A DNA stretch of 64,000 bases from an uncultured bacterium (lineage in GTDB: Bacteria > Omnitrophota > Gorgyraeia > Zapsychrales > Aceulaceae), in assembly GCA_937930175.1 (NCBI GenBank), contig CALGLP010000004.1, positions 2,163 to 66,162 of the forward strand, read 5' to 3'. Of the stretch, positions 32,083 to 61,471 are shown piece after piece; the stretch's first letter is position 1; every line of letters starts with the position of its first letter. The translations under genes were made by a program, and so were the position numbers. The notes below the pieces were generated by a model. It did not search any database, was not told the DNA's origin, and was given only the letters and a program-made list of their open reading frames with translations.

Positions 32083-32156
32083 TGCCCTGTCGTCTAATGG
32101 TAGGACTCAAGATTCTGGATCTTGCTATCATGGTTCGAGTCCATGCGGGGCAGCCA
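32083..32156 (+). tRNA. tRNA-Gln (CTG)
   Basis: Acceptor TGCCCTG/CGGGGCA, anticodon loop TTCTGGA, T-arm CATGGTTCGAGTCCATG, encoded CCA. Confidence 0.8.
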
Positions 32157-33833
32157 ACCTTGACGCTCAGGCGAACTTCGAGCGTTCGATACAGTAACAA
32201 GCGCCTTGCAGGCATCCCCTGCAGGGCGCTTGTCATTTTTAGGGGCTTTTTGGGTCTCCGGGGCGGGCAGGCTGCATGAAATGCTGTCAACGGTGGGCTG
32301 GTCTATATACATTTTGATTTCGATATAATCCTTGTAAACGACGATTTCCTTGATCATGGCTTGTATAAGGCTCTTCTGGGCTTCCGGAGGGGCCTTTTCG
32401 ATATATTGCATGGCAAACCTAAGGTTTGAGTGCAAGAATTGCCCCGAGCTTGCCGACATTTGAGCCACGTTCTTTTTAGCCTGCAGTTTTTCCAGCTCGT
32501 CTTCTAGCCTGACAATCTCCTCATCAAGCCTCGCCATCTTGTCCTTGTAAGTCTTCCCTTGCGATATCCTGTTGTCCATAGCCAGTTCAAGAAGCCTGTT
32601 CGCTTCCTGTTTGGTCTCTTCAAGTTTCTCCTGGAGAGGCTTCATCATTTTCTCAAGGGCCTCGAGTTTTATCTGGGAATCAAGGATTGCGTCTCCGATC
32701 GCCTTTACGATGATGTCCTGATCAGTAGATGCCCGCTTGAAATAATCGATAAGCGCCTCATCAAAGCCCCTGGCAGAGAACCTAGACACATCACAGCCTA
32801 ATTTCTGCTTGGACCTGCCGCATACATAATAAAAGAATTTCTCAGCTGCCTGGCCGTTGCCGCTTTCGCAGACATAGTGGCTTCCGCATTCGCCGCACTT
32901 AAGGAGCCCGGCTAAGAGGTAGATATACTCCGGGGTCTGTTTTATAAAGCGATGCCCGGGAAGTTTTGCGGTGAGGACCCGGTTTGCCTTTAACCATAAC
33001 TCTTCGTCCACAATAGCAGGATGAGTGCCTTTGTGGATCTCCTTGCCGTATTTTATATAACCCTTGTGAAATTGATTCTTTATAATCCAGGCAATGCTCT
33101 GCTTGCGCCAGACTTTACCCGTAGGAGTCTTTATGCCTCTGCGGATTAACTCCTGTCCGATATCATAAAGCGACTTGTTATTAGCGGCCATCTCCCAGAT
33201 AAAGCGCAGCTTATTTCCTGTTTCAGGATCGACAATAATTTTATGCGGCTGCCTGCCGTTTGGAAGAGGCGCGCCGTCTGGTATCAATTTATAACCGAAG
33301 GGCACGTTGCCACCAACCCACCTGCCTTGTCGCACCCTGGCAACGCAGGAGGCCTTCACGCGCTCGCCGATGAGCTCCCGCTCAAAAGCCGATAGAATAC
33401 CGAGTATGCCGATTACTACCCTGCCTATGGCAGTTGAGCTATCAAGGTTTTCGCGTACGGATACGAAAGCGATCTCTTTGGAGTTGAATAGATCAATAAG
33501 CCAGTAGAGGTCACGGGTATTGCGGGTTAAGCGGTCAAGACGGAAGAAGATTATTCCGTCAAACGCGGCAGTTTTTCTGCGCACGTGGTCAATAATCATC
33601 TGGATGCCGGGTCTGTTGAGATCCTTGCCGGAATAGCCGTCGTCTTTTACCACGCCTTTATTGCCTATATCGGCAAGCTCATGCCCGAACGCATCCAGCA
33701 GATTCCTGCAGTGGTAGGTCTGGGCATCCAGGGTAGTAAAATCTCCCTGGGCCTGGTCGTCGGTAGAGCAGCGCGTATATATAACGTAGCGTTTTTTCTT
33801 ACGGGTATTATCTGTTTTAACATTCATAGCCAT
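32094..33833 (-). CDS. Large serine recombinase (phage integrase)
   Basis: 579 aa; resolvase catalytic domain (YTRCSTDDQ), recombinase domain, Cys-rich zinc ribbon, coiled coil; 3' end overlaps tRNA-Gln. Confidence 0.85.
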   Translation of the reverse strand: MAMNVKTDNTRKKKRYVIYTRCSTDDQAQGDFTTLDAQTYHCRNLLDAFGHELADIGNKGVVKDDGYSGKDLNRPGIQMIIDHVRRKTAAFDGIIFFRLDRLTRNTRDLYWLIDLFNSKEIAFVSVRENLDSSTAIGRVVIGILGILSAFERELIGERVKASCVARVRQGRWVGGNVPFGYKLIPDGAPLPNGRQPHKIIVDPETGNKLRFIWEMAANNKSLYDIGQELIRRGIKTPTGKVWRKQSIAWIIKNQFHKGYIKYGKEIHKGTHPAIVDEELWLKANRVLTAKLPGHRFIKQTPEYIYLLAGLLKCGECGSHYVCESGNGQAAEKFFYYVCGRSKQKLGCDVSRFSARGFDEALIDYFKRASTDQDIIVKAIGDAILDSQIKLEALEKMMKPLQEKLEETKQEANRLLELAMDNRISQGKTYKDKMARLDEEIVRLEDELEKLQAKKNVAQMSASSGQFLHSNLRFAMQYIEKAPPEAQKSLIQAMIKEIVVYKDYIEIKMYIDQPTVDSISCSLPAPETQKAPKNDKRPAGDACKALVTVSNARSSPERQGWLPRMDSNHDSKIQNLESYH

Positions 33834-33906
33834 AAACTTTCCACCGCATTTAACTCAGGCACCCGCCAGGCAGAAGGCACTCTCCTGCCTGGCGTCGCTA
33901 AAACAG

Positions 33907-34251
33907 TTATGCCTGGGCTTTCTGCTTTTTGCCTTTGCCCCAGCCAGCCTTCCATCTGGTCACAGCCCCAGCCACAATAGCATCAACAGCTTTCTGGTCG
34001 CCGATGTTCTTGAGAACGTCGGTGAGTTCCTGCTTGTTAAGCACCCGAAAATTCTTAACTCCGCGCTGCTTAGCTGTCAGCATTAGCTCGTTGCGTGTGC
34101 TGCCTGCCGCTAAGACAATACCTTCCTTAGGCGACGGAGAATTATCAACCGACGCCTTGGCTTTTTGAGTTTTTGGTTTCTTCTTGCCGTAATGCTTGGC
34201 GTGAAGTTTGTGCAAAAACTCCCGGTCTTTCTTTTTCTGCTCTGCGGTCAT
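33907..34251 (-). CDS. Lysine-rich small protein with Rho_N-like helix-extended-helix motif
   Basis: 114 aa; ELMLTAKQRGVKNFRVLNKQELTDVL resembles the Rho N-terminal domain; cotranscribed upstream of the integrase. Confidence 0.35.
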   Translation of the reverse strand: MTAEQKKKDREFLHKLHAKHYGKKKPKTQKAKASVDNSPSPKEGIVLAAGSTRNELMLTAKQRGVKNFRVLNKQELTDVLKNIGDQKAVDAIVAGAVTRWKAGWGKGKKQKAQA

Positions 34252-34382
34252 GTGGTTTCACCCCCTTTCAGGTTTTTGGACACCCCAACCCTATAACAAA
34301 ACCCCTACAAGTCAAGAGGAATCGATGCATAGGCGCCCTATGTATATATCCCGTTTTTTTTCGCAAAATGTCCCATTTTTAT

Positions 34383-34414
34383 TGGGACAAATTGCAGAAA
34401 AAATCGGGATATGT
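34383..34414 (+). promoter_or_regulatory. Phage early promoter-like motif, copy 1 (TGGGACAAATTGCAGAAAAAATCGGGATATGT), preceded by palindrome GTCCCA-TTTTTAT-TGGGAC
   Basis: Near-identical copy at 35349-35380, each about 15 nt upstream of a start codon. Confidence 0.4.
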
Positions 34415-34429
34415 AAGTAGAGGTGGAAT

Positions 34430-34645
34430 ATGGGGCAGACCATAAAGAACAATTTCAATAAGCGATTCGGAGGTCGGATTCGGATTGTCTACGCGCAGAA
34501 AGTATCCGCGTTAGAAAGGCAAATCCTTAATGAGAGGCTCTGCAAGGCAATGATAGAAGTGCTTACCGGAATTTTAGGCAGAGAGCCGACCCAGCGGGAG
34601 TTGCTGGGCATCGATGACCTCGCGAAAGCAATAAAGCATAAATAG
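34430..34645 (+). CDS. Hypothetical early phage protein
   Basis: 71 aa; first plus-strand gene after the divergent region. Confidence 0.3.
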   Translation: MGQTIKNNFNKRFGGRIRIVYAQKVSALERQILNERLCKAMIEVLTGILGREPTQRELLGIDDLAKAIKHK

Positions 34646-34761
34646 AGATACCTCTGTATATATTTATGAGACCTCCGTGATTTACTTGGCCTCTCTAAAA
34701 GGCTAACGTTAGTAAGGGCTCATTTAAAGACACCTCAAGAAATAAAAAAAGGAGGTGTCTC

Positions 34762-35334
34762 ATGAGTCTCAATTACGGGAAGTTATTTGAGAGCTGGGAG
34801 CTTGCCACCGCGAAGTCAATAATCAATGAATACAGAGAGAAGTATAAATATTTAAGACAGGAAAGCTTTGATGATCTTTTGCAGGATTGTCTTATCTGCT
34901 GGCTGGACCTGCGGGAGCGATACGATCCTGGTCGCGAAGCGTCAAAGAAAACTTTTATGGCCGGGGTCATTAAGAAAGAGCTTGAGAAAATCGCCGAAAA
35001 GCTTAAGGCACATAAGCGAAAGACGATTTTTGAAGCAGTCTCTCTGGATGAGCCCCTTAATGATGACGAAGTCGAGTCCACCTTAAAAGATAAGATTCCC
35101 GAAGACAGGGACGCCCCGCCACAAACCGAAACGGACCTCAAGATAGAAATTTCCAAGGTATATCAAAAACTTACTCCCCAGCAAAAGAAGCTATGCAGAC
35201 TGTTGAGCGATGAAGACCTCAGCATAAAAGAGGTCTGCAAGCAGTTTGGCAAACAAAAGAGCAGTATATACAGAGAAATATCCCGAATTCGGGAGATCTT
35301 CGAGAGGGAAGGCCTTAAAGATTACCTGAAATAA
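34762..35334 (+). CDS. ECF-like sigma-70 family sigma factor (phage-encoded)
   Basis: Region 2-like FDDLLQDCLICWLDLRERYDP and region 4 HTH LSIKEVCKQFGKQKSSIYREISRIREIF. Confidence 0.5.
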   Translation: MSLNYGKLFESWELATAKSIINEYREKYKYLRQESFDDLLQDCLICWLDLRERYDPGREASKKTFMAGVIKKELEKIAEKLKAHKRKTIFEAVSLDEPLNDDEVESTLKDKIPEDRDAPPQTETDLKIEISKVYQKLTPQQKKLCRLLSDEDLSIKEVCKQFGKQKSSIYREISRIREIFEREGLKDYLK

Positions 35335-35348
35335 TTTTTCAAAAAGGG

Positions 35349-35380
35349 TGGGACATTTTCAGGAAAAAATCGGGATATGT
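35349..35380 (+). promoter_or_regulatory. Phage early promoter-like motif, copy 2 (TGGGACATTTTCAGGAAAAAATCGGGATATGT)
   Basis: Shares 17/17 nt AAAAAATCGGGATATGT with copy 1. Confidence 0.4.
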
Positions 35381-35397
35381 GTATGGAGGCAAATTAA

Positions 35398-35673
35398 ATG
35401 ACCGATGTGTGCAAATTCAAATTTCAGGAAAAGGTAGGCAAGAAGACGATTGATAAGCAGATCGCCCGTGCCATTGAGACCGCGGAATACACCTTCGGCC
35501 AGGCCAAGGTGCGGCTTCATGCCGGGTATCTGGCCACAGACGATAAGGCGGTCATTGATGTCTCAAGCGAAGTCGGTGAATACATCGCCCAGATATTTAT
35601 CGGCCTTATGACCCGGCAGCTCGGCGAGGACAAATTCACCGTGGAAAGAATAAGGAGGAGCGAAGAGCCATGA
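35398..35673 (+). CDS. Hypothetical phage protein
   Basis: 91 aa. Confidence 0.3.
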   Translation: MTDVCKFKFQEKVGKKTIDKQIARAIETAEYTFGQAKVRLHAGYLATDDKAVIDVSSEVGEYIAQIFIGLMTRQLGEDKFTVERIRRSEEP

Positions 35674-35852
35674 AAGTTATTCAGGGACTAAAGAAACTCT
35701 ATAAAAGCTTGAGTTGGTATAACCGCGATAGACTTGTCGAGGCAAACCGGCCGTTTGGCAAGGATCCAAAAGAATTCATAAGGATACTGATTTGGCTTTT
35801 TGCAATTTCATCGATCATTATCGGCATCCTTTTAATTATCGGAAGGCGGTAG
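35670..35852 (+). CDS. Small membrane protein
   Basis: 60 aa; one TM helix. Confidence 0.25.
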   Translation: MKVIQGLKKLYKSLSWYNRDRLVEANRPFGKDPKEFIRILIWLFAISSIIIGILLIIGRR

Positions 35853-35858
35853 AGAGCA

Positions 35859-36104
35859 ATGGATGATGGTCAAGGAGACTTATTCTTATCCAAGGAAAAG
35901 CAGCTCTTAAATTGGTGTAAGCAAAAGAGGGTTTTCTCTAAAGCTGAAGTCATCTCCTTTGGCACTAAGAATTATTATCTCCGGGCCGATAGGACAATAA
36001 GGGATTTTGTCCGCAGGGGCATAGTAAGAAAAATAAGCAAGGAAGAATGCATCCGGCGGAACCTCAAGGGCAAGATGGCCTGGTATGAGTTTGCATCTTC
36101 TTAA
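35859..36104 (+). CDS. Hypothetical phage protein
   Basis: 81 aa. Confidence 0.3.
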   Translation: MDDGQGDLFLSKEKQLLNWCKQKRVFSKAEVISFGTKNYYLRADRTIRDFVRRGIVRKISKEECIRRNLKGKMAWYEFASS

Positions 36105-36116
36105 AAGAGTATTTTT

Positions 36117-36542
36117 ATGGGAAGCGAAAAGATAGATATCAGGGATTTGCGCGACGGCAAATTCCTTTGGATAGATAAGGCAGCATTAAGACTCATTAGT
36201 GAGAATGCTGGGACAATGGGCGTAGCTGTTTACTCATGGCTTTGTTATTACGCTAATTTTAAGGCGCAGGACTGTTTTCCGTCTATTACTACACTGGCAT
36301 ATCACTGCGGAGTATCCAGGCGCACGATCATGCGGGCAGTGAAGCAGCTTGAGCGGCTAAAAGCTGTCTCAATTGAAAGGAAGAAGGGCAAGCCGAATAT
36401 TTATAAGCTGCTTAATATTTCCGCAGTCAAAAGTTATCCACAACCAAGTAGTGACATTGATGTCACCAGTGACAGGGCTGTCACTGGGGTAGTGACACAG
36501 GCGTCACCAGAGGTAGTGACTGGCGTGTCACACGAACAATAG
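36117..36542 (+). CDS. HTH replication-initiator-like protein
   Basis: 141 aa; winged-helix segment ITTLAYHCGVSRRTIMRAVKQLERL; iteron array embedded in its 3' end. Confidence 0.45.
   Translation: MGSEKIDIRDLRDGKFLWIDKAALRLISENAGTMGVAVYSWLCYYANFKAQDCFPSITTLAYHCGVSRRTIMRAVKQLERLKAVSIERKKGKPNIYKLLNISAVKSYPQPSSDIDVTSDRAVTGVVTQASPEVVTGVSHEQ
36450..36535. repeat. Iteron array: about 8 alternating GTGAC/GTCAC motifs; candidate phage replication origin
   Basis: AGTGACATTGATGTCACCAGTGACAGGGCTGTCACTGGGGTAGTGACACAGGCGTCACCAGAGGTAGTGACTGGCGTGTCACAC. Confidence 0.5.
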
Positions 36543-36805
36543 ATATATAACAAGAGATAACTATCAAAAGATAGTAGTAGAGGCTGTGAAATTGTGAATA
36601 ACTCTGGTTTGTTCTTAAAAGAAAGCTTGCGGGTCCTTCCAAGGGGGTGTGCGGCGCGGGTCGGGCGAGGCGCGGGCTTTCAGTGATTAGGGCTTAAAAA
36701 ATTGATGTCAATGTCAATGAAAATGGGTCCTACCCGAAAAGGGCGGAGGACTATCTTTTTCATTTAACTATATATCTATTAAAGGGTTAGAAAAAGGAGG
36801 ATAGA

Positions 36806-38113
36806 GTGGCAAAGATTAACATAAAGCCCGAAATTAGTGACATAAAGTTATCAGAAATAAAGCCCGCCCCATATAATCCGCGGGAGATTACGAATGAGGC
36901 GCTTTCGGGCCTGCGGCATAGCCTGGAAAAGTTTGGCTATGTAGACTTACTGGTAGTCAATAAGCGCAACATGCATATCATCTCAGGGCATCAGCGGTAT
37001 AGGATTTTGCAGGCAGAGGGCGTTGCGACCGCACCGGCTATCTTGGTCGACGTTGATGAAATTCAAGAACAGGCAATGAATGTTACGCTCAATAACCAAG
37101 AGATTGCTGGTCAATGGACGCAGGCGCTTATCCCGCTTTTAGAGAAGTTGCGCAATGAGGCGGCTGATGATTACCTTGCCTTAAGGCTTAAGAATTTACG
37201 GGACAGTGTCGGAGACATGGGAGTTGAGAATTTAGGAGACGGTAAGACGCTTCCGGATGATATTCCTGAACCGCCTAAAGAGGCGATTACTAAAAAAGGC
37301 GACCTTTGGATTATGGGCGAACACAGGCTTCTCTGCGGCGATTCTACAAACGAAAGCGATGTGGCGCGGCTTATGGATAATCAAAAGGCAAGCTTGTTTG
37401 CTACGGATCCGCCCTATTGCGTTGATTATACCGGAGCCGACAGGCCTACCGGCGGCCACGACTGGTCCGGAGTTTATCATGAAGTCGATATTCCGGATGC
37501 TAAGGAATTCATAAAGAAGTTTTATGTAGTGGGCCTTAAGCATATCAAAGAAAATACCGCACTCTATCTTTGGCATGCTTCAAAACGAAGAGGCATGATT
37601 GAGAATATCTGCGACGAGCTGGGCATTCTCCTTCACCAGCAGATTATATGGGTTAAGCCTTGCGCGGTATTAACATATTCGTTTTATTCTTGGCGCCATG
37701 AGCCCTGTCTTCTTATGTGGGTTAAAGGACAAAAACCACCCTATAAGCCAAAAGACAAATCTATCGGCAGCGTGTGGATGATTGATTTCTTGCGCTCAGG
37801 TGATCCTGCTCAAGCCGAATATCATACTGATGTCTGGGAGCTTGATTGGGAAGGCAAGAAACGCAACCCAGGTCTGCATCATCCAACAGTTAAACCTACG
37901 GAGGTATTCGCTATTCCTATGCGCGTGCATACGTCGCCCGGAGAAATCTGTTACGAGCCGTTTAGCGGGTCTGGTTCGCAGATCATTGCAGCTGAACGGT
38001 TAAATAGGCGCTGCTATGCGATGGAGATCGAGCCTATCTTTTGCGACGTGGCCGTCAAGAGATGGGAGGAATTTTCAGGAAGGAAGGCGCATAGAGAAGA
38101 TAGCAATGGATGA
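36806..38113 (+). CDS. ParB-like nuclease domain fused to a DNA methyltransferase (DPPY motif)
   Basis: N-terminal ParB/Srx-like domain; LFATDPPY (motif IV) and FSGSGS (motif I) in beta-class order; GTG start after RBS AAAAAGGAGG. Confidence 0.7.
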   Translation: MAKINIKPEISDIKLSEIKPAPYNPREITNEALSGLRHSLEKFGYVDLLVVNKRNMHIISGHQRYRILQAEGVATAPAILVDVDEIQEQAMNVTLNNQEIAGQWTQALIPLLEKLRNEAADDYLALRLKNLRDSVGDMGVENLGDGKTLPDDIPEPPKEAITKKGDLWIMGEHRLLCGDSTNESDVARLMDNQKASLFATDPPYCVDYTGADRPTGGHDWSGVYHEVDIPDAKEFIKKFYVVGLKHIKENTALYLWHASKRRGMIENICDELGILLHQQIIWVKPCAVLTYSFYSWRHEPCLLMWVKGQKPPYKPKDKSIGSVWMIDFLRSGDPAQAEYHTDVWELDWEGKKRNPGLHHPTVKPTEVFAIPMRVHTSPGEICYEPFSGSGSQIIAAERLNRRCYAMEIEPIFCDVAVKRWEEFSGRKAHREDSNG

Positions 38114-38732
38114 AAAAAGTCAGAACTTAATAGAGATTGCCCGCAAAAAACGCTACATCTCCCTCGTTGAGAAACTGCAGCGAGGAACGCTATCAGCCAA
38201 GGAGCTTAAGGAGCTCGAGGAGTTTGAAAGATCCGAGCACAAAAAAGAAAGTAATGTACTTGATGGGACGGTTGACCTCGGGACAATTTCAGTATTCTTA
38301 GAGAAATCTCCCCGCATGGTCCGGCGTTACATAAAGCAGGGACTGCCGGTTATCCGGGATTCACAGGGAGAAATCTATCGTTTTAAAGTCAGCGATGTCT
38401 TCAAGTGGTTTTATGCTTCGCAAAATCCCGAAGACGGCAGCAAAGATTATTGGGAAAATGAATACCGCAAGAACCGCGCCAAATTAAGCGAGCTTGAATT
38501 AAAGCAAAAAGAAGGCGAGCTTATTCCTTTCGCAGATCACGCTTCATTAATCAAAAATCAGATCAGGGGTATCAGGGCAGGTTTTTTGAGATTACCAAAA
38601 TACATTGCACCTAAGTTGTACCAGCAGGAGCCGAAGGTTATTTGCGAGATGCTGGACGCAGAGCTTCGCTATATCATCAATCAGTTTGCAGGAGTGAAAA
38701 GTGGGGATAAAGATAGCCAAAGCAATAGTTAA
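38106..38732 (+). CDS. Putative terminase small subunit
   Basis: 208 aa charged helical protein immediately upstream of and overlapping the large terminase; start ATG 38106. Confidence 0.45.
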   Translation: MDEKSQNLIEIARKKRYISLVEKLQRGTLSAKELKELEEFERSEHKKESNVLDGTVDLGTISVFLEKSPRMVRRYIKQGLPVIRDSQGEIYRFKVSDVFKWFYASQNPEDGSKDYWENEYRKNRAKLSELELKQKEGELIPFADHASLIKNQIRGIRAGFLRLPKYIAPKLYQQEPKVICEMLDAELRYIINQFAGVKSGDKDSQSNS

Positions 38733-40551: not shown

Positions 40552-40808
40552 TGGGGCGATGGCTTGAGAGAAAACCTAACTGGCTGAAAAATGTAGACCG
40601 TAATGATTCTGTTGAGCCGCAAAGAAATTTAGGCGGCAGGCCGCAGAATGAGTCAAAAGATTACGGAGTCAGATTTATTCCCTTAAAATGCCCCAAGTGT
40701 AAAAGCAAAGATATTAAATGTTATTCCAGCCATCCGCCGGTTAGATATCATATCTGCCAGAAATGCGGCCATAATTTCAAATCTGTTGAGGCTGAAGAGG
40801 ATGGATAG
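40518..40808 (+). CDS. Zinc-ribbon small protein
   Basis: CPKCKS...CQKCGH four-Cys ribbon. Confidence 0.3.
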   Translation: MDPEKGRVLALMGRWLERKPNWLKNVDRNDSVEPQRNLGGRPQNESKDYGVRFIPLKCPKCKSKDIKCYSSHPPVRYHICQKCGHNFKSVEAEEDG

Positions 40809-40928
40809 TTTTTACTAATTTGTAGTAACGACTATCTTGTCAATTACAGGGTTTCAAGTAATATAGAGTTAAAGAATATTTGCGCTAAAAGGTTGGCCGC
40901 CTTTATAAGCGCCCCAATAGTTTTATTA

Positions 40929-40966: not shown

Positions 40967-40987
40967 TGGGTAAAATTGGAGGTTTAT

Positions 40988-43964: not shown

Positions 43965-43983
43965 AAAACGAAGGAGGAGAAAG

Positions 43984-55217: not shown

Positions 55218-55433
55218 ATGGGTAAGAAACTGATACCGAGTAAAGTGATTATCGAGTTTGATAACGGCGCTTTTGTAAGCGGCGTTATTCTTTATAAAGT
55301 AAATGACAGCGGTGAAATAAGCCGGGTAAAAACAATCGGGATTAAGAATGCTGATTTCAGCAAACCGCTACTTAACGGGCTGCTACAAAAGTTTATTAAG
55401 CATGCGGAAAGCGCGGAAGGAACTCAAGAATGA
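55218..55433 (+). CDS. Hypothetical phage protein
   Basis: 71 aa. Confidence 0.3.
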   Translation: MGKKLIPSKVIIEFDNGAFVSGVILYKVNDSGEISRVKTIGIKNADFSKPLLNGLLQKFIKHAESAEGTQE

Positions 55434-55708
55434 TTTGCTCAAGATGCAAGCAAGAGATCCCCAAAGACATGGCCTATGTGCTGATAAGGGGAAGCATTAT
55501 TTTGCGTACTCCCAAAAAGCGGCCTTTAGTCTTTACCTGCATTGAGCAGGCATTTAATTACGCGCAAGCCTTATTTATGCACGATGTCTGCTGGATTGAG
55601 ACTTTGCGGGAGTACGGGTTAGAGCTTTATGACATGAATAAGGTCGCAGAACAATATAAGAATATGGAGGTGTCCGATGGCTTGGGACAAGACAAAGCCG
55701 GAAAATGA
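55430..55708 (+). CDS. Hypothetical Cys-containing phage protein
   Basis: 92 aa. Confidence 0.3.
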   Translation: MICSRCKQEIPKDMAYVLIRGSIILRTPKKRPLVFTCIEQAFNYAQALFMHDVCWIETLREYGLELYDMNKVAEQYKNMEVSDGLGQDKAGK

Positions 55709-56249
55709 CATGCTTTTAATTAACTTCCCGGCTGCCTGCAGGGCAAACTGGGAAGCCTTAGAGTTAGGCACGGACCCGAATCTTTTAATTACGAATGCCA
55801 AGGTAGCGCCCGGGGCCGGAATTGAAGACACAAAGCTGGCACAGATAGTCACGCCGAATAAGGTGAGCGGCGCAGCTTTGACCGGCCTGGCAAGCATACC
55901 TTCTGCAGCCGGGGTCCTGCCGGAGGCGAATTCTCCTAATAAGCTGAAAGCCGATGTCAGTGATACAACGCCGGAGTATTTAGACGGGCTTATCGATACT
56001 TTGGTGTTTCAGATTTCAGGAAGCGATAAGCTGCAGCTAAAAGACGGCGGAGTCGGCACTGAAAAGCTGGAAGGAGGCGCAGCTTCTCCGGGGAATAACA
56101 AATGTTACGGAACCAATGCAGGCGGTGCCAAGGGGTTTTATGAGACTATCCCTGTTCACCTTGATTCAGTTCAAGACGGCCAGGGATTAAGATATAGCAG
56201 CGCCAATTCAAGGTTTGAGAACGCGCCGCCCAGAGCGGTATACGCATAA
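55677..56249 (+). CDS. Putative tail fibre protein (proximal part)
   Basis: 190 aa Gly/Ala/Ser-rich with fibre-like low-complexity segments, downstream of J. Confidence 0.4.
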   Translation: MAWDKTKPENDMLLINFPAACRANWEALELGTDPNLLITNAKVAPGAGIEDTKLAQIVTPNKVSGAALTGLASIPSAAGVLPEANSPNKLKADVSDTTPEYLDGLIDTLVFQISGSDKLQLKDGGVGTEKLEGGAASPGNNKCYGTNAGGAKGFYETIPVHLDSVQDGQGLRYSSANSRFENAPPRAVYA

Positions 56250-56258
56250 AGGAAACAC

Positions 56259-56834
56259 ATGGGAAATTATACAAGCGGGCCCCCGAAAAGCTCCGGAGGA
56301 AATCCAGTACCTACAACATGGACGGACGATCCATTAGTTCAGGATGTTACGCCTATTAAAAAGACGCACATTGTAGAGCTACGGGCTTGTTTAGAAGCCT
56401 TAGACGGCCATTATCATGTATTCAATGGGAACAATTCAAACGCGGAAGTGCCGGATGTATCTGTGGCATGGGCAGAATCAAATGCGCAGCTTATTGTGGA
56501 TGAAACGCCGCCGAAGGCATCGCATACTAATGAGGTTATAAATTTTATCAAGGCCTTTAATGGTCACTACCATTATGTGCCAGCATACAGCATTAATTCC
56601 AACGCCTTTGCGCCCGGTTTTGCTTTTGAGGACGACCCGGTTACAGCGCTTGTTACATGGATCAAGGCATCGGCTCACGAACAATTAAGAAGCCATTTAG
56701 AAAGCTTGGCAGGGCATACGCATATAGTCTGCTGTGAATGCGAATGCACCTGCACTTGTACCTGCACGTGTACTTGTACCTGCACCTGCACCTGCCAGGA
56801 GCAGTGCTGCAGCGAATGCGATTGCGGAGATTAA
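56259..56834 (+). CDS. Putative tail-fibre tip / RiPP-precursor-like protein with three G-H-x-H motifs and a C-terminal Cys-rich (Cys-Thr)n tail
   Basis: 191 aa; LDGHYHVF, FNGHYHYV, LAGHTHIV; C-terminus CCECE(CT)8-9CQEQCCSECDCGD; stop one base before the radical SAM start. Confidence 0.5.
   Translation: MGNYTSGPPKSSGGNPVPTTWTDDPLVQDVTPIKKTHIVELRACLEALDGHYHVFNGNNSNAEVPDVSVAWAESNAQLIVDETPPKASHTNEVINFIKAFNGHYHYVPAYSINSNAFAPGFAFEDDPVTALVTWIKASAHEQLRSHLESLAGHTHIVCCECECTCTCTCTCTCTCTCTCQEQCCSECDCGD
56745..56795 (+). repeat. Hexanucleotide (TGYACN) tandem repeat encoding the (Cys-Thr)n run
   Basis: tgcacc tgcact tgtacc tgcacg tgtact tgtacc tgcacc tgcacc tgc. Confidence 0.85.
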
Positions 56835-56835
56835 A

Positions 56836-58122
56836 ATGAAGCCAAAATCTGCCTATATTTTTGTGACTAATAAATGCAACCTGCGCTGTAAATATTGCTA
56901 TGAAGAAAACCGCACCGGAGATATGACACCGGAAACTATGGTTGCGGCCATAGACTGGCTGGTAAGCCATTATGAAAAAGAAATGTTTGCCCGGCCTTTT
57001 GAAAGCCTGACCTTTACATTCTTTGGCGGAGAACCGCTTCTTAATTTTCCGACAGTCAGGGCTGGTATAGATTACCTGCGGGGCATATGCGATAAGCTTA
57101 ATTTTAAGGCAGGAATCCACATTTTATCAAACGGGACGGTATTTACAGATGAGATGACAGAGTATTTTAAGAACATTCGTCAATACAATAATTTCAACTG
57201 GCACTTTCAGGTGTCATTGGACGGCTGCGAGGAAACGCACAACGCTAACAGGGTATTTGCCAATGATGAGGGAAGCTATAAGGTTATTTCAGAAAACATA
57301 AAAAAGATCAGGGAAATTTTCAAAAGCGTAGGCGTGCGCATGACCGTTACGCCGGAGAATATAAAATCACTTTCAAAAGATTTTGAGGCTTTGCTTTCTT
57401 TTGGCACGCCTGTGACTAACCTTACGCCTATTGTAGAAGGCGACTGGAATGATGAGGTGATCGGCACATTCATAGATGAGCTTAAAAAATGCATTGAGCT
57501 GTATTACCGAAAAGGCCATAACCAGTATTTTAATTATCTGCACCATTCTTTGGAGAGGATAGTGGACAATTCATTTAACCGGCAGAAGGGCTGCAGGGCA
57601 GGGGAATTCTTGATAGGTATTTCAACTGAGGGCAAGATCTATCCTTGCCACAGATTTGTCGCCTATTCTAAGAAAGATGACTTTTGCCTGGGCGATGTCT
57701 GGAAAGGTATAGACGAAAACGGCGAGGCGTTTAAGAAAATAAAAGAAATGCGTCAGAGGGCAGTTAAGTGTTTAAACTGCAAGGTGTTTTCCTGTAACAG
57801 GTGTTTTGCAACAAATATGTACTTGAATCAGGATCCCGCGGCGATTCCCGACAACGGGTACTGCGAAATGAACGAAAAGATATCAAGCGCCTTGCGGCCG
57901 ATAATAAGGAGGTTGTTTGTGGAAGGAAAATTACCGCTTAAAGAAGGCGAAATGGCAGATCTAAAAGATAATGGTGTTATGTATAAGATAAGTAAAGACG
58001 AGCCTGCGGAGCTTGTAGAGGACAAGTTAGATGTAATGGCCCGCTGTATGATCCGCGTGGTGAAAGAACTGCAAGAGGTAAAGTCAGCGCTGTCTTTGCT
58101 TGCATCGAGGCATAAGGATTAA
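56836..58122 (+). CDS. Radical SAM enzyme with C-terminal SPASM domain
   Basis: CNLRCKYC (Cx3Cx2C) near the N-terminus; C-terminal cysteines including CLNCKVFSCNRC; real start ATG 56836 (the listed ORF from 56734 is alternate-frame read-through of the CT repeat). Confidence 0.8.
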   Translation: MKPKSAYIFVTNKCNLRCKYCYEENRTGDMTPETMVAAIDWLVSHYEKEMFARPFESLTFTFFGGEPLLNFPTVRAGIDYLRGICDKLNFKAGIHILSNGTVFTDEMTEYFKNIRQYNNFNWHFQVSLDGCEETHNANRVFANDEGSYKVISENIKKIREIFKSVGVRMTVTPENIKSLSKDFEALLSFGTPVTNLTPIVEGDWNDEVIGTFIDELKKCIELYYRKGHNQYFNYLHHSLERIVDNSFNRQKGCRAGEFLIGISTEGKIYPCHRFVAYSKKDDFCLGDVWKGIDENGEAFKKIKEMRQRAVKCLNCKVFSCNRCFATNMYLNQDPAAIPDNGYCEMNEKISSALRPIIRRLFVEGKLPLKEGEMADLKDNGVMYKISKDEPAELVEDKLDVMARCMIRVVKELQEVKSALSLLASRHKD

Positions 58123-58125
58123 GCT

Positions 58126-59478
58126 ATGAAGTATTTATGCATCGTTCCATATGAATATACCACTATAACGATGATGTACCGGAATTCTCCGGTCGGCATC
58201 TATAAGGTTGCCACAAAACTGCGCAGAGAAGGCCATACTGTAGAGCTTTTTAACATGTACCCTCTTTACCGCCCGAGAAAGTTTATGGAGAATAAGCCGG
58301 GCGCGATGTATTTCAAGGGCATACCTGTATCTCAATTTATCGGTTATAAGAAGTGCGGTAATTTCGAGAACGAGAAATTATGCAGGGAGTTTCACAGGCT
58401 GGGACTGCCAATATCAGAACTTACGAAAAAGTTAGAGGAGTTTCAGCCTGACAGGATATTTGTTGGCAATACCTTTACTTTTCTCTGGAGGGCAGTTTAT
58501 GAGATCGTAGCCGAATGCAAAAAGACGATGCCTAAGGTTCCGGTAAAGGTCGGCGGGCTATATGCTATTCTTTGTCCGGATCATGCTGCAGCATCGGGTG
58601 CCGACGAAGTCATGACCCTGGAAGAAAAGACTACGAGCGATAACTTTATCAAAATAGATACGGATTTATTCGGTGATAACCTTCCAGAGAGGATATTTTT
58701 AGGGACCTCGGTAGGCTGCCCCAATCATTGCTCATATTGCGCTGTTCATATTGTAGAGGGCTGCACAAAGGTAAACACCAGCCCGGATGAAGTAGTAAGC
58801 GAGCTTAAGTATTATAAATCAATGGGAATAAGCAGGTTTATTTTTCTCGACGCCAATATCCTCTATGGATACGAGAATCATTTTAAAGTTATTCTCGATA
58901 AGGTTATCCAGGAAAACTTAAATATAGAGCTTTATTCCTACGGAGGAGTAGAGGCGCGCCTATTGACCGATGATATTGCAGAAAAGATGGTTAGTGCCGG
59001 GTTTCGTTCGGTGAATATTCCTATTGAGAGCGCAAGCGACATTATTATTAAAGAATGGAAGAGGAATTGCTTTGTTGCCGACTGGGAACAGGCGATGAAT
59101 GTTGCTAAGAGGCATTTTCAGCGTCTGCGTTCTTTCCTGATTATCGGCGCGCCGAATCAGACCGCAGAAGATATTAAGTCAACCATTGACCTGATTAAAA
59201 GCTACGGTGCAGAGGCGGTAACTCTGCCGTATACGCCGATTCCAGGTACTCCTGATTACGAGAAGTATAAGCATATCGATTTGGAGGACCTTAACCCGGC
59301 CTTTTATCCCTGCGCGCATGAGCGGATGAAAGCAGCTGATTTAGAAAAGTTTTACTCTGAAAACCGGAATGTCAGGTTTTGCTTAAGAGATTGGGATGAT
59401 GCTCAACAGAAAATACCGCCGCCCACAAAGACGATATTTGAAAGCGGACCGGCAGTAAAAACTAAAGGAGGGGATTAG
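58126..59478 (+). CDS. B12-binding-domain radical SAM enzyme
   Basis: N-terminal Rossmann-like B12-binding region followed by CPNHCSYC (Cx3Cx2C). Confidence 0.65.
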   Translation: MKYLCIVPYEYTTITMMYRNSPVGIYKVATKLRREGHTVELFNMYPLYRPRKFMENKPGAMYFKGIPVSQFIGYKKCGNFENEKLCREFHRLGLPISELTKKLEEFQPDRIFVGNTFTFLWRAVYEIVAECKKTMPKVPVKVGGLYAILCPDHAAASGADEVMTLEEKTTSDNFIKIDTDLFGDNLPERIFLGTSVGCPNHCSYCAVHIVEGCTKVNTSPDEVVSELKYYKSMGISRFIFLDANILYGYENHFKVILDKVIQENLNIELYSYGGVEARLLTDDIAEKMVSAGFRSVNIPIESASDIIIKEWKRNCFVADWEQAMNVAKRHFQRLRSFLIIGAPNQTAEDIKSTIDLIKSYGAEAVTLPYTPIPGTPDYEKYKHIDLEDLNPAFYPCAHERMKAADLEKFYSENRNVRFCLRDWDDAQQKIPPPTKTIFESGPAVKTKGGD

Positions 59479-59480
59479 CT

Positions 59481-59771
59481 ATGGGAAAGGTCATCAATCA
59501 CGAGGAGATAATTGTTGACGATATTGTAAAGAGCTTAACACCGTCGGTTTACGACCCGGGCAGCGGTGTGCCAGCCTCTTTTGCGCTTATTCACGCGGAA
59601 GGCGGGCCGATGAGATATTTCGTTAACGGGCAAAATCCTGCGCCGTCGTCCGGGGCACTTTTAGAGGATGGAGATATTGTAGAGCTTCCGTCAATTTATC
59701 ACATAAAGGATTTTAGGGTGGTTAAATCCGGGGATGATTCAGGAAAAATTACAGTAACTTATGAAGCATAA
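59481..59771 (+). CDS. Hypothetical small protein adjacent to the radical SAM pair
   Basis: 96 aa. Confidence 0.3.
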   Translation: MGKVINHEEIIVDDIVKSLTPSVYDPGSGVPASFALIHAEGGPMRYFVNGQNPAPSSGALLEDGDIVELPSIYHIKDFRVVKSGDDSGKITVTYEA

Positions 59772-59785
59772 AGGAGGCGTTAAGA

Positions 59786-60340
59786 ATGCAGCTGCATCTT
59801 AAACATCGCAAAGCAAGCAGAATAATTAAGCGGGTTACAGAAATAACTACAGATGGCGGGCTTCCAAAGACAGGCCAGACTATGATTTATCAGCCTGGAG
59901 ATGACGGGTCCTATCAGATGGGGTATCCGATAGGCGGCGTTCAAAGGTTTATTGACAACGGCGACGGAACAATAATCGATATGGCGACAGGCCTTATGTG
60001 GATAAAAGATCCTCAGGCAGCAGGTTTAAGGTCCTCTATGTATTGGTATGACGCAATCAATGCCTGCGAGAATTTGGATTATGCAGGCCACGATGATTGG
60101 CGGATGCCGAACATTAACGAGCTCTTGTCAATTGTGGATCATTCAAGGTATGATCCGGCATTCGATCTGATGTATTTTATACCATTCCCGGATACATGGA
60201 CGCCTAATTGGTCGTCAACCGTTTGTGCGCCTTGGCTGGACGGGGCCTGGTGTATGTATCCGTATGATGGTTACAAAACAGTCTGGAGCAGAATTAGTGA
60301 TATGTGTTTTGTGCGGCCTGTCAGAGGCGGTCAATCTTAA
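59786..60340 (+). CDS. DUF1566 (Lcl C-terminal-like) domain protein, probable fibre or adhesin domain
   Basis: DWRMPNINELLSIV matches the DUF1566 signature WRLPTxxEL. Confidence 0.5.
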   Translation: MQLHLKHRKASRIIKRVTEITTDGGLPKTGQTMIYQPGDDGSYQMGYPIGGVQRFIDNGDGTIIDMATGLMWIKDPQAAGLRSSMYWYDAINACENLDYAGHDDWRMPNINELLSIVDHSRYDPAFDLMYFIPFPDTWTPNWSSTVCAPWLDGAWCMYPYDGYKTVWSRISDMCFVRPVRGGQS

Positions 60341-60354
60341 AAGGGGAGGCGAAA

Positions 60355-60537
60355 ATGGCAAAAGCTACAATTGAATATAAAAATGGAAAGAAAATCGTTA
60401 CCTATCCTAACGGCGAAAAGCAGGAACATTCCAAAGAAAGCCTTAAAACCGCGAAAGATATGTTTTTGCGGCATAGGCAGAAGATAGATGAGAATATCGC
60501 ATCAATCGATGACGATCTTGCAAAAATGACGGTGTAG
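60355..60537 (+). CDS. Hypothetical phage protein
   Basis: 60 aa from ATG 60355. Confidence 0.3.
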   Translation: MAKATIEYKNGKKIVTYPNGEKQEHSKESLKTAKDMFLRHRQKIDENIASIDDDLAKMTV

Positions 60538-60541
60538 TCAT

Positions 60542-60826
60542 ATGCATAATAATGGTAGCTGGACAAAATATATCACACCGGTTTTAGTGACGATTGCTAT
60601 TTTCATGCTCGGCACGATTATGGCACAGGTAAGCCGCATCGATGAGAAACTCTTTCAGCATTTGGCGAATGACCAGATACATATGCCGCGCAGTCAGTAT
60701 GTTTCAAAGGCAGAATTTGATCTGCACTGCAAATTCTTTGAAAAAGAAAACGAGCGGATCTTGAAGGCAATAGACGATTTAAGGAATGATTTAAAGGTAA
60801 GAAGCCGGGATGGAAGAAATAAGTAG
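60542..60826 (+). CDS. Single-TM membrane protein (holin-like candidate)
   Basis: 94 aa; one TM helix. Confidence 0.3.
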   Translation: MHNNGSWTKYITPVLVTIAIFMLGTIMAQVSRIDEKLFQHLANDQIHMPRSQYVSKAEFDLHCKFFEKENERILKAIDDLRNDLKVRSRDGRNK

Positions 60827-61016
60827 AGTAAGGATTGAGTTTGACCTGCATGAGTATCGGCGGCTTGCCTTGGTTATCCGGGATCACAAAAGTCTGCTCT
60901 ATAAATTAAAAATGAACGAGCTGATCAAACAGGGCCTTATAAAAGACATGAACATTATTATAGGCATATTGGAAAGAGCCGAGGTTAAACCACAAAAGGG
61001 GGAGGTGGAAACATGA
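60810..61016 (+). CDS. Hypothetical phage protein
   Basis: 68 aa. Confidence 0.25.
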   Translation: MEEISRVRIEFDLHEYRRLALVIRDHKSLLYKLKMNELIKQGLIKDMNIIIGILERAEVKPQKGEVET

Positions 61017-61124
61017 AGATGTTTATAGCTTTTACTTTGGGGAATATAGTCGGAGGCCTGGGAATGTTTTTTTATCTTTGGCTGAAAGGCAAGGTGCAGA
61101 GTGTCGGAAAGCGAAAAATTTAGT
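61014..61124 (+). CDS. 36-aa TM peptide MKMFIAFTLGNIVGGLGMFFYLWLKGKVQSVGKRKI
   Basis: Single hydrophobic helix plus basic tail. Confidence 0.25.
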
Positions 61125-61433
61125 CTGCTTAAATTTGCCGGGAGTTTTTTTCAATTCCTGCCGTGGGTGAAGACGCTGCGTTATGCAGCCGGTATTGCGC
61201 TTGTCGGTTTTATCGGCCTGACAATTTACAGGGCATTCTTTATGCCGACGCAGACCACCAAACAGGTCACGCATATCATCGCCCAGCCTGGAGCACAGGT
61301 AACGGTGGATCAGAAGAAAGAGGAAAGGAAGCCCGGCCTTGAGGTTAGTCCTTTCGTAGAAGGCTATGGGTTCGTGGAATCCGACGAGCGCAAGGGCGCA
61401 GGCGCCAAGGCCGGGGTTAGGATTGACTTTTAA
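61101..61433 (+). CDS. Membrane protein (spanin-like or holin-like candidate)
   Basis: 110 aa; one TM helix. Confidence 0.3.
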   Translation: MSESEKFSLLKFAGSFFQFLPWVKTLRYAAGIALVGFIGLTIYRAFFMPTQTTKQVTHIIAQPGAQVTVDQKKEERKPGLEVSPFVEGYGFVESDERKGAGAKAGVRIDF

Positions 61434-61471
61434 CATTCCTACGCACGCAGCCACAAACTTGGGAAATTACC

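Follow-up and report, generated by a model that had tools for sequence, protein, structure and literature searches.

Phage integration into tRNA genes is usually carried out by tyrosine integrases, and the attP core of such elements duplicates tens of base pairs of the tRNA 3′ end. The characterised serine integrases (A118, TP901-1, SprA, Bxb1, phiC31, Ccr) have protein-coding genes or intergenic sites as targets. Their att sites span ~40-50 bp and show imperfect dyad symmetry about the central dinucleotide; long direct repeats at the prophage ends are lacking. In SSV1 int and in mycobacteriophages with BPs-type integration-dependent immunity, attP lies within a gene, and the 3′ end of the ORF is altered by integration. 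Shared cores of 25-76 bp have been reported for Int-Y tRNA sites (PMC8092301), and surveys report tRNA attB sites for Int-Y but not for Int-S (PMC10654092, PMC13626063). According to the portion of a preprint considered here, 27 of 937 Prochlorococcus tycheposons and cryptic elements carry a large serine recombinase instead of a tyrosine recombinase (bioRxiv 10.1101/2020.12.28.424599). Tycheposons are cargo- or PICI-like elements of cyanobacteria, and the same portion describes neither an integrase/tRNA overlap nor an att anatomy for those bearing a large serine recombinase.

The window, i.e. the whole stretch of 64,000 nucleotides analysed here, contains a ~29.3-kb prophage of a temperate siphovirus with lambda-type head and tail genes, located in a Candidatus Omnitrophota chromosome ~26 kb away from dnaA. 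As a prophage the element is ordinary; what is unusual about it is the integrase, a variation on a known kind. We consider it highly probable that the phage entered by means of its own serine integrase at an attB formed by the 3′ end of tRNA-Gln(CTG), with crossover within C71-C74 and attR at the motif GCAGCCA before the tetR promoter. The original prediction of a ~29-kb lambda-like prophage at tRNA-Gln was borne out by the presence of a terS-to-J module and a serine recombinase, with the tRNA on the left and the tetR promoter on the right. Its start, set at 32083, had to be moved to ~32151-32154, the tRNA body being host DNA. The sharp rise in GC content described after 32160 proved to be a modest step (46.5% in the prophage versus 44.2% and 41.5% in the flanks), with a local jump solely at the integrase end (41.5% to 51.5% in 200-nt windows).

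Table 1. Features of the prophage and its flanks (positions in the window).
Feature	Position	Strand	Remarks
Host tRNA-Gln(CTG)	32083-32156	+	ARAGORN; body to ~nt 72 host, last ~4 nt (G73-CCA) at or beyond crossover
attL core GCAGCCA	32150-32156	+	crossover probably within C71-C74 (32151-32154)
P′ half-site ACCTTGACGCTCAGGCGAACTTCG	32157-32180	+	embedded in integrase ORF 3′ end
Intrinsic terminator, phage-supplied	32197-32240	+	tRNA strand; 16-bp stem, then T run; inside integrase ORF
Large serine recombinase (LSR, integrase)	32094-33833	-	579 aa as integrated; PF00239, PF07508, PF13408
p114	33907-34251	-	Lys-rich small protein, weak Rho_N/SAP-like motif; upstream of integrase
Early region	34430-38113	+	p71, small ORFs and the next three genes
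Sigma-70-like factor	34762-35334	+	
HTH_36 replication-initiator-like protein	36117-36542	+	
ParB-N/DNA methylase	36806-38113	+	
Packaging/head block	38016-45324	+	
terS	38016-38732	+	
GpA terminase	38701-40551	+	PF05876 E 1e-78, PF20454 E 4e-66
Head-tail adaptor	40940-41197	+	
Lambda-family portal	41194-42780	+	PF05136 E 8e-107
377-aa ORF	42831-43964	+	no family
Scaffold-like protein, 117 aa	43984-44337	+	head-scaffolding PHROG
Major head protein, 319 aa	44365-45324	+	major-head PHROG 1005 only
Tail block	45397-55215	+	starts with head closure/attachment
Tail terminator	46343-46801	+	
Tail tube	46815-47957	+	
G	47974-48399	+	with -1 GT extension
Tape measure	48707-50251	+	then M, L, K (NlpC/P60)
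J	51595-55215	+	
Host-recognition/cargo module	55218-60340	+	starts with two small ORFs
F190	55677-56249	+	
CT191	56259-56834	+	Cys-repeat protein
PapB-like radical SAM/SPASM enzyme	56836-58122	+	
B12-binding radical SAM enzyme	58126-59478	+	then p96
Lcl_C/DUF1566 adhesin-like protein	59786-60340	+	
Small proteins	60355-61433	+	p94, p36 and TM110 with a single TM segment each
P arm and putative attR core	61434-61453	+	GCAGCCA 61447-61453; prophage end ~61448-61451
Host flank	61464-62168	+	tetR promoter/operator, TetR gene (61551-62168), then OEP/HlyD-type/AcrB efflux operon

The 579-aa ORF at the left end is a large serine recombinase with predicted recombination activity. Its catalytic domain was matched by PF00239 (residues 17-172, E 8.6e-30; visible motif YTRCSTDDQ) and, among PDB sequences, by that of TP901-1 (E 3.7e-22). 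With the Recombinase domain (PF07508, E 2e-17) and the zinc ribbon (Zn_ribbon_recom, PF13408, E 6e-11) also matched, the earlier assignment to the serine recombinases holds. PDB relatives are TP901-1, SPbeta SprA and A118, the SprA and A118 alignments covering residues 91-499 and 198-394. The order of domains (resolvase with the Ser nucleophile, recombinase, zinc ribbon with coiled coil) is that of A118 and TP901-1 Int, SPbeta SprA, Bxb1, phiC31 Int and CcrB/CcrC. The short att identity, the lack of long flanking repeats and the position of the integrase gene beside attP are likewise features of phage serine integrases. No phage record reaches 30% sequence identity to the LSR, and the NCBIfam cut-offs for Ccr and XisF were not reached. 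Unlike the characterised serine integrases, the LSR has a tRNA 3′ end as its target. Elements with tyrosine integrases such as P4, P22 and L5/mycobacteriophage likewise insert at tRNA 3′ ends and restore the gene with element sequence, but here the recombinase is of the serine family and the shared core measures 7 bp. A domain search of the prophage found no tyrosine integrase, and the tRNA end is repeated over at most 7 bp. This 7-bp identity at the prophage ends is accompanied by ~55-nt imperfect palindromes at related sites.

The LSR ORF runs antisense to tRNA-Gln and overlaps it by 63 nt, the last ~20 codons being antisense tRNA. Its stop codon had been correctly located inside the tRNA gene but assigned to the wrong arm: TAG (32094-32096) corresponds to tRNA nt 12-14 in the D arm, not to the T arm. 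The C-terminal tail extends ~70 aa past the structural core, and the other strand of this region encodes the P′ half-site and the tRNA terminator. The integrase ORF crosses the recombination point, since half-site, CCA and terminator are all contained, on the other strand, in the 3′ end of this gene. The protein, 579 aa long in the prophage with its C-terminus read antisense from the tRNA end, would comprise 563 aa in the free phage and end in ...QGWLRA. Integration would trade the last 2 residues of the free form for 18 residues of non-core tail. The crossover thus falls inside a phage ORF as in SSV1 int and BPs, but in the LSR it changes the non-core tail only.

The 63-nt overlap might be taken to mean that the tRNA-Gln gene is phage-borne and that the element begins upstream of 32083. 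Such an origin is extremely improbable. The YmdB-PilZ-GluRS-tRNA-Gln synteny is conserved where there is no integrase, and GluRS-tRNA-Gln is kept in ~60 integrase-free Omnitrophota MAGs, which marks this pair as a host arrangement, and the near-identical phages L001 and L002 reside at host tRNA-Gln genes that differ, with stem differences that covary. Moreover, two sister genomes, one occupied (L012) and one empty (L013), are collinear over 7.7 kb at 90.9% identity and part precisely behind tRNA nt 72, their homology ending after ...GGGGCA. Synteny, the tracking of the host by the tRNA and this break contradict a phage-borne gene, which was rejected. Judged by these comparisons, the body of tRNA-Gln is host DNA that tracks the host rather than the phage, and the break after nt 72 places the prophage start no more than 4-6 nt before the tRNA 3′ end. 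The palindromic P-core-P′ sites of relatives (~55 nt, imperfect) have their symmetry centre at C71|A72 or G73|C74, and strand exchange probably occurred within C71-C74. The T-arm/acceptor end of tRNA-Gln(CTG) would then serve as the bacterial left half-site, and the phage side of attL would provide the discriminator base, CCA, a conserved half-site of 20-24 nt and a strong tRNA terminator hairpin. In an empty host site the uninterrupted tRNA-Gln would be followed directly by GCCACAAACTTGGGAAATTACC. The phage attP would measure ~50 bp in the region of CATTCCTACGCACGCAGCCAACCTTGACGCTCAGGCGAAC, and its junction in the circular phage would read ..CCTACGCACGCAGCCAACCTTGACG...

An 8-bp identity near both ends, ACCTTGAC (32157-64 and 61469-76), would also permit a crossover downstream of the tRNA. 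The whole tRNA including CCA would then belong to the host, attB would be intergenic at the tetR -35 box, and the empty site in this host would read ...GCAGCCAACCTTGACAGAAC. We regard this as very improbable, given that the empty genome L013 lacks ACCTTGAC after its tRNA and loses homology with L012 at nt 72, and that the empty-site tRNA-Gln genes of nine MAGs lack CCAACCTTGAC. In addition, the right-hand 8-mer is part of a host promoter/operator of 58 nt, whose second copy at 62204-62261 has ATCTTGAC in its place; the 8-mer therefore represents the host -35 region. A crossover in ACCTTGAC was rejected on these three grounds.

Under the preferred reading, with crossover inside the tRNA 3′ end, attR would consist of the P arm, which directly follows the last phage gene, and of the host DNA preceding the tetR promoter, the two meeting at GCAGCCA. 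The boundary of about 61440 proposed originally lies no more than 10 nt from our estimate of 61448-61451. Likewise, the failure to find a repeat of the tRNA 3′ end that would mark attR is understandable: the longest shared identity is the 7-bp GCAGCCA (32150-56 and 61447-53), and the lack of a long repeat fits a serine integrase. The right end is bounded on its left by the TM110 stop codon, where homology to 11 relatives stops, and on its right by the duplicated tetR promoter, which marks host DNA by 61464 at the latest. GCAGCCA, present at both prophage ends, occurs four times in the 64-kb window, and its chance occurrence in the allowed 30-nt interval has p ~0.007. It is not kept in L119, the sole variant junction found.

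In all 23 relatives readable past TM110, at least 1.1-1.8 kb of extra phage DNA follows this gene, namely a module of gX, a p114-like gene, p103 and defence cargo. As the window is without this module, the right end is possibly a deletion scar. The prophage would then be grounded, with a genuine attL, a scar at ~61434-61463 and excision lost, the deletion having taken the module along with the true attR. Searches for intact sites agree with such a history: the prophage junction was present in nine of nine contigs with an identical TetR, none of which had an empty tRNA-Gln/tetR junction; one metagenome scan gave no empty site, and no attP junction of this phage was found. A grounded prophage is nonetheless improbable. 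A random deletion is unlikely to leave GCAGCCA in the 30-nt interval (see the p value above), all structural ORFs are intact, and four other loci (L003, L012, L130 and L189) share the arrangement in which p114 neighbours the integrase, which indicates an established type of genome rather than a single rearrangement. A prophage with its attR at GCAGCCA might still be active today. No directionality factor (RDF), on which excision by serine integrases depends, was identified in the prophage; by its position p114 is, speculatively, a candidate, and its homolog in the 23 relatives is located after the last late gene, beside the other att end.

The first 19 nt of the P′ half-site are identical in eight loci whose LSRs are 73-93% identical, and an exact 22-mer of it was found in 115 public contigs. 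Gln, Asn and His types have in common the consensus CCA-N3-4-T(T/G)GACG..CAG..CGAAC at a fixed spacing from CCA. The terminator behind it folds stably (z = -4.15 for tRNA plus tail), and relatives have hairpins of different sequence at the equivalent place. In 10 of 10 IMG/VR relatives and in five MAG loci, the integrated element adjoins the 3′ end of a tRNA gene for Gln, Asn or His. Among 120 homologs, 55 end in W-x4-(D/E/G)(S/L)N, which is what CCA, acceptor and T arm encode when read in antisense, and in 42 the stop falls within nine residues after a Trp. This design, with TGG (Trp) opposite CCA, the half-site and a terminator, recurs in more than 200 related LSRs, at tRNAs for Gln, Asn, His and other amino acids. 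The LSR belongs to a large, apparently undescribed group inserting at the extreme 3′ end of tRNA genes.

At some related loci, elements have accreted in tandem at one tRNA. The 20-nt half-site is also found without any integrase gene at 37 tRNA-Gln genes in metagenomes and is thus not always tied to a resident LSR; in many genomes it is present on integrase-less cassettes arrayed from tRNA-Gln to tRNA-Leu. A broader proposal, which we put forward as rather doubtful, combines a tRNA-specialised clade of more than 200 LSRs hopping between isoacceptors, an antisense C-terminus switch and a cassette system served in trans. The clade (Omnitrophota, Elusimicrobia, Auribacterota) would use the conserved T-arm/acceptor end as bacterial half-site, which would permit isoacceptor hops. 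Integration would swap the LSR C-terminus and put the end of the gene on the strand opposite to a strongly transcribed tRNA, damping the integrase in the lysogen. The integrase-less cassettes would form an integron-like system served by a serine recombinase.

The morphogenesis genes are those of a lambda-like siphovirus, with GpA terminase, portal, G/GT, tape measure, M, L, K and J in the same order, in a genome of 29 kb versus 48.5 kb for lambda and in an Omnitrophota host. The canonical lambda order was therefore recovered for terminase, portal, G/GT, H, M, L, K and J, but not for the labels protease, D and E. The 'protease' (42831-43964) had no match in Pfam, PHROGs, NCBIfam or PDB sequences, and 'D' matched a head-scaffolding PHROG. 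'E' stood as regards its major-head PHROG match but not as regards Pfam gpE; none of the S49 gpC protease, gpD and gpE families was matched among the prophage head ORFs. The -1 frameshift signal of G/GT is an A7 run (48389-48395), with the -1 frame open for ~105 codons to the tape-measure start. The absence of a recognisable repressor, endolysin or I-like gene was upheld by family searches of the prophage ORFs, among which no CI/Cro-type repressor, lambda Int/Xis or lysis enzyme was recognised; gpI is absent as a separate gene, and the J N-terminus has a weak ThiS-like match (E 0.13).

PapB-type ranthipeptide clusters consist of a PapB-family maturase and a short precursor peptide with Cys/Asp repeats. 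The PapB-like enzyme of the cargo module scored 211 bits with NF047865 (cut-off 340) and 145 bits with TIGR04115 (cut-off 350). Its putative substrate CT191, which is 191 aa long, folded and ends in a (Cys-X)n tail, contrasts with the short peptide of such clusters, and the combination of CT191 with two radical-SAM enzymes in a tail-fibre region seems to be undescribed. The small TM proteins noted before at 60542-61433 were confirmed to have single TM segments. The small proteins of this region, possibly a lysis cassette, had no family matches and included no recognisable endolysin. TM110 is kept in 24 IMG/VR loci and in 147 proteins.

If the proposed mode of integration is true, the serine family has reached the tRNA 3′-end targeting typical of tyrosine integrases with a much shorter core, and half-site, CCA end, tRNA terminator and integrase C-terminus are packed on one stretch of DNA. 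Serine integrases serve as genome-engineering tools. A conserved T-arm half-site would offer many predictable natural targets, and the naturally occurring variants in specificity, among them those for Gln, Asn and His, would be useful for understanding how site choice is encoded. To our knowledge, there are no cultured phage-host systems for Omnitrophota, and the element described here represents a well-delimited temperate phage of this phylum.

Gene content and junction evidence confirmed that the predicted lambda-like prophage with a serine recombinase at tRNA-Gln is real and had been read correctly in outline. At the sequence level its integrase qualifies as a large serine recombinase (LSR), and its nearest solved relatives are the integrases of TP901-1, SPbeta (SprA) and A118. 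Canonical lambda order had been proposed for the late genes: likeness to the lambda module was found in terminase, portal, G/GT, tape measure (H), M, L, K and J, but not in gpC, gpD, gpE or gpI. Gene G contains an A7 slippery run, and the open -1 frame extends to the start of the tape-measure gene. The 377-aa late protein had no match in any library searched. Family searches detected no repressor, endolysin or gpI family in the prophage, as had been predicted, and the small membrane proteins expected at its right end were found. The GC step is real, though modest rather than sharp (46.5% in the prophage versus 44.2% and 41.5% in the flanks). Two copies of a 41-nt repeat (78% identical; ..AAAAAATCGGGATATGT..GGAGG) lie directly upstream of the p71 and p91 start codons, with the phage sigma-like factor encoded nearby; the repeat may be a common promoter or operator for early genes. 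The prophage itself is ordinary, and the interest lies in its integrase system.

Features of the prophage and its chromosomal surroundings (window positions)
Feature	Position	Strand	Description
Probable origin region	892-10673	gyrB, dnaN, dnaA on -	gyrB, dnaN, dnaA, AT-rich gap, yidC, parA, parB
AT-rich gap	6227-7008		between dnaA and yidC; GC about 0.29-0.34
tRNA-Gln(CTG)	32083-32156	+	ARAGORN
LSR	32094-33833	-	579 aa, directly after the tRNA; Resolvase, Recombinase, Zn_ribbon_recom domains
LSR stop codon (TAG)	32094-32096	-	tRNA positions 12-14
P'	32157-32180		conserved phage half-site just after CCA
Hairpin and T run	32197-32240		16-bp stem; inside LSR ORF
p114	33907-34251	-	small Lys-rich protein
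41-nt repeat	34383-34423; 35349-35389		upstream of p71 and p91
Early region			after LSR: p114, sigma-70-like factor, HTH_36 initiator-like protein, ParB-N/methylase
Packaging and head genes			terS, GpA terminase, head-tail adaptor, lambda-family portal, 377-aa protein, scaffold-like, major head
Tail genes			connector proteins, tail terminator, tube, G, tape measure, M, L, K (NlpC/P60), J
Region after J			host-recognition/cargo block, then five small proteins (one TM segment in each of three)
Conserved cassette at tail-fibre position	55677-59478		F190, CT191, PapB-like radical SAM/SPASM enzyme, B12-binding radical SAM enzyme
F190	55677-56249		upstream neighbour of CT191
CT191	56259-56834		191 aa, Cys-repeat protein
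TM110	stop at 61433		last phage gene
Right junction interval	61434-61463
GCAGCCA	61447-61453		identical to last seven tRNA nt
tetR promoter/operator	61464-61521; 62204-62261		58 nt, two copies

Within the cargo, CT191 belongs to a small family (46 homologs; a search of 1.84 billion proteins gave 16 representatives at E <= 1e-30). It consists of three repeats, T.VKA.H..ELR..LE.L.GH.H, followed by an alternating Cys tail whose (Cys-X)n pattern is invariant (CCECECTCTCTCTC... / CCECECTCTCTCTCTCTCTCTC...). The AlphaFold (AF2) model has a confident fold for residues 1-160 (pLDDT 86) and a disordered tail, and the fold had no match in PDB or BFVD. The repeat module alone is present in 1,762 proteins, often C-terminally in long ones. 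The PapB-like enzyme encoded downstream, ahead of the B12-binding one, scored 211 bits, under the family cut-off. Distant CT191 homologs keep both radical SAM partners in unrelated tailed elements, behind a myovirus-type baseplate in locus L124 and behind a tail-collar protein in L126. Our reading is that CT191 is a putative radical-SAM-modified tail-fibre-tip protein; no paper linking radical SAM/SPASM enzymes to tail fibres was found in the literature. According to precomputed Pfam hits, the radical SAM gene beside the CT191 homolog in L126 (2197-4488) harbours an intein that has a LAGLIDADG domain.

The genes 5' of tRNA-Gln encode RNase Y, a YmdB-type phosphoesterase, a PilZ protein and glutamyl-tRNA synthetase (GluRS). 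A GluRS scan with one genome per species returned 80 loci (best identity 82%), the closer ones mostly belonging to MAGs of Candidatus Omnitrophota, some of them submitted with Planctomycetales labels. As the order YmdB-PilZ-GluRS-tRNA-Gln was kept without an integrase in about 60 of the 80, tRNA-Gln is a host gene. Further upstream, the layout of the dnaA region coincides with the cumulative GC-skew minimum (about 4-5 kb), which marks a probable chromosomal origin and places the prophage about 26 kb from it; with the origin taken there, the late genes are co-oriented with replication. At loci L004, L005 and L010, the complete tRNA-Asn is preceded on the host side by one to four tandem units, in each of which about 80 nt of adjoining sequence accompany the first 17-18 nt of the gene; the units may be scars of other integrations targeting the D-loop region.

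The original prediction had placed the LSR stop codon in the T arm of the tRNA. It lies in the D arm instead, so that LSR and tRNA overlap by 63 nt. Despite this overlap the tRNA body is host DNA, as two comparisons revealed. Loci L001 and L002 carry essentially one phage, with the same percent identities to the window genes, but their tRNA-Gln genes differ at covarying stem positions, and identity between the loci runs only to ...AAGGTTGGCTGCCC. The sister genomes L012, occupied by a phage whose LSR is about 80% identical, and L013, which is empty, align collinearly for 7.7 kb at 90.9% identity and diverge immediately after tRNA nt 72, where L013 reads GGGGCA|ATTTTAAATTTG and L012 reads GGGGCA|GCCAACCTTGACGCTC. 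An encoded CCA is mostly absent from tRNA-Gln genes at empty sites; all occupied sites have ..GCCA or ..ACCA and then a TTGAC/TGGAC motif. The hairpin on the phage side of the junction is a predicted terminator on the tRNA strand, and hairpins of other sequence occupy the corresponding place within the integrase ORF of relatives.

At the right end, 11 relatives align with the window as far as the TM110 stop codon and none further. Host DNA has begun by the first nucleotide of the 58-nt tetR promoter/operator, because this element is duplicated farther on. The junction therefore falls within the 30 nt between, in agreement with the boundary of about 61440 proposed before. This interval contains GCAGCCA, which occurs four times in the whole window; a 30-nt interval taken at random would have a 7-mer in common with the crossover stretch with a probability of about 0.007. 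The promoter/operator (TTGACA-17-TATATT plus the palindrome TGTGAACA..TGTTCACA) precedes both tetR and an OEP/HlyD-type/AcrB efflux operon; lying immediately next to attR, these two look like a divergent-function pair under TetR control.

All 23 relatives readable beyond TM110 have additional genes at that place (gX, a p114 homolog and p103), often followed by restriction-modification or BREX-like genes. None of these follows TM110 in the window, where p114 adjoins the integrase, and neither an empty site nor attP of the window phage was found in metagenome and IMG/VR scans, as might be expected if the right end were a deletion scar. We regard such a deletion as unlikely, since the placement of p114 beside the integrase recurs in L003, L012, L130 and L189, which makes the window layout a genome type of its own. 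In the 23 relatives (L091-L114, about 6400-7100) the p114 homolog is found at the other end of the prophage, behind the last late gene; both positions flank attP on a circular map. Identity of these homologs over residues 34-99 is about 80-88% in the closest relatives and lower in others. GCAGCCA is absent after TM110 in L091-L114, whose ends lie further out because extra modules follow. A k-mer search for a tRNA-Asn core in L101 yielded just 10-mers at chance level, and the variant junction of L119 is uninformative because its host flank is itself mosaic. In relatives of the window phage, variable defence-type cargo occupies the att-proximal right end (L093 7184-9968, L134 9271-14781, L103 7586-10374, L099 7051-8281) and comprises (i) an RHH protein together with a type III R-M-like pair, an 839-aa methylase and ResIII helicase; (ii) apparent BREX-like brxA/brxB/brxC-type genes, recognized by eye; (iii) one more apparent DNA methylase, also by eye.

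With the right junction in the 30-nt interval, attB would read ...GTCCATGCGGGGCA/GCCACAAACTTGGGAAATTACC and attP ...TTTTAACATTCCTACGCACGCA/GCCAACCTTGACGCTCAGGCGAAC, with predicted junction sequences CCTACGCACGCAGCCAACCTTGACGCTC (attP) and CATGCGGGGCAGCCACAAACTTGGGAAATTACC (attB). In attP the LSR ORF would end in ...QGWLRA-stop after 563 aa, compared to 579 aa when integrated. The central dinucleotide is predicted to fall in CAGC (tRNA nt 71-74). The exact 22-mer of CCA and P' was present in 115 metagenome contigs. Those with a non-tRNA left side have P-arm-like sequence there, forming with P' an imperfect palindrome of about 55 nt centred on C71|A72 or G73|C74 of the tRNA-like core; these palindromes support the att geometry independently. 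Three IMG/VR scans gave no match to attP of the window phage. Searches for the empty site gave none either, whether by exact-protein look-up of GluRS or by a metagenome scan for tRNA-Gln with the tetR promoter <=30 nt downstream, and contigs with identical TetR or TM110 all carry the prophage. An 8-mer near both ends, ACCTTGAC, was considered as crossover core and ruled out by the promoter duplication, the empty-site tRNA-Gln genes and the L012/L013 break.

The association with tRNA ends characterises the integrase clade and is no accident. Each of the ten IMG/VR relatives (54-93% identity) abuts a tRNA 3' end (Gln, Asn or His), and two remote LSRs (23-24% identity) also overlap tRNA-Gln, in the same frame. 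A large protein database contained 208 homologs at E <= 1e-30, with source names Omnitrophota, Elusimicrobiales and Auribacterota. Among the best 120 of these, 55 carry the C-terminal signature W-x4-(D/E/G)(S/L)N, the antisense translation of CCA, discriminator, acceptor strand and T arm, and a further 42 stop <=9 residues past a Trp; the TGG codon of this conserved Trp is complementary to the tRNA CCA. When aligned at CCA, phage half-sites of different tRNA types have CCA-N3-4-T(T/G)GACG..CAG..CGAAC in common. The inner TGGAC and outer CGAAC of P' resemble the reverse complement of the tRNA T stem/loop (GTCC...GTTCGA) at somewhat different spacing, from which we infer that the LSR probably uses the conserved T arm as bacterial left half-site. 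This agrees with known half-site recognition by LSRs. On the tRNA side 20 nt may suffice, because in L133, 190 nt past the complete tRNA-Asn gene, a copy of just its final 20 nt stands in front of the half-site. Homologs P0048, P0055 and P0060, whose unusual C-termini made them candidates for free-phage attP forms, were found integrated at tRNA-Gln (sites with other acceptor stems) or at a pseudo-site; P0137 (L132, contig ERZ27248448 k141_1561581), where the contig ends, is a possible attP form. The P0055 phage lies 103 nt downstream of tRNA-Gln, at the pseudo-site ..CAAAACAACCA. A short palindromic repeat (GTCCCTCGACTTCGCTCGGGAC; L128 9600-9704 and 9704-9808; L130 3720-3850) is inserted in frame in the C-terminal tail of P0055 (..CPERSRGT..) and also occurs in host intergenic DNA.

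The unusual feature of the window integrase is its target, a tRNA 3' end. According to surveys of Mycobacterium prophages, 16 of the 23 systems with a tyrosine integrase use a tRNA or tmRNA attB site, and a PICI that encodes a serine integrase inserts elsewhere than at a tRNA (PMC10654092). For Int-Y tRNA sites the stated cores are 25-76 bp long (PMC8092301), and in a survey of 430,000 proviruses tyrosine integrases preferred RNA genes and used longer cores (PMC13626063). A large LSR discovery paper does not mention tRNA (PMC10083194), and no paper on serine integrases dedicated to tRNA ends was found in the literature. The closest precedent found is the LSR-bearing minority of Prochlorococcus tycheposons and cryptic elements, 27 of 937 (10.1101/2020.12.28.424599).

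Half-sites were also found apart from integrase genes. In metagenome contigs the 20-nt half-site ACCTTGACGCTCAGGCGAAC follows tRNA-Gln without an integrase gene at 37 sites; at 40 further sites lacking an integrase tail the left side is non-tRNA and P-arm-like, and many of these are P-core-P' imperfect palindromes of about 55 nt before ORFs with their own RBS. Diverse ORFs (Fic-domain, lipoprotein-like) start about 20 nt after the integrase-less half-sites, which are present in many genomes; sometimes a second P-core-P' site comes next, and tRNA-Leu and tRNA-Glu lie beyond. Such arrays between tRNA-Gln and tRNA-Leu (for example L250 2404-5163, L232, L177, L173, L194 and L198) provide a lead: they may reflect accretion in tandem at the tRNA, perhaps of cassettes or satellites that lack an integrase and are mobilised in trans.
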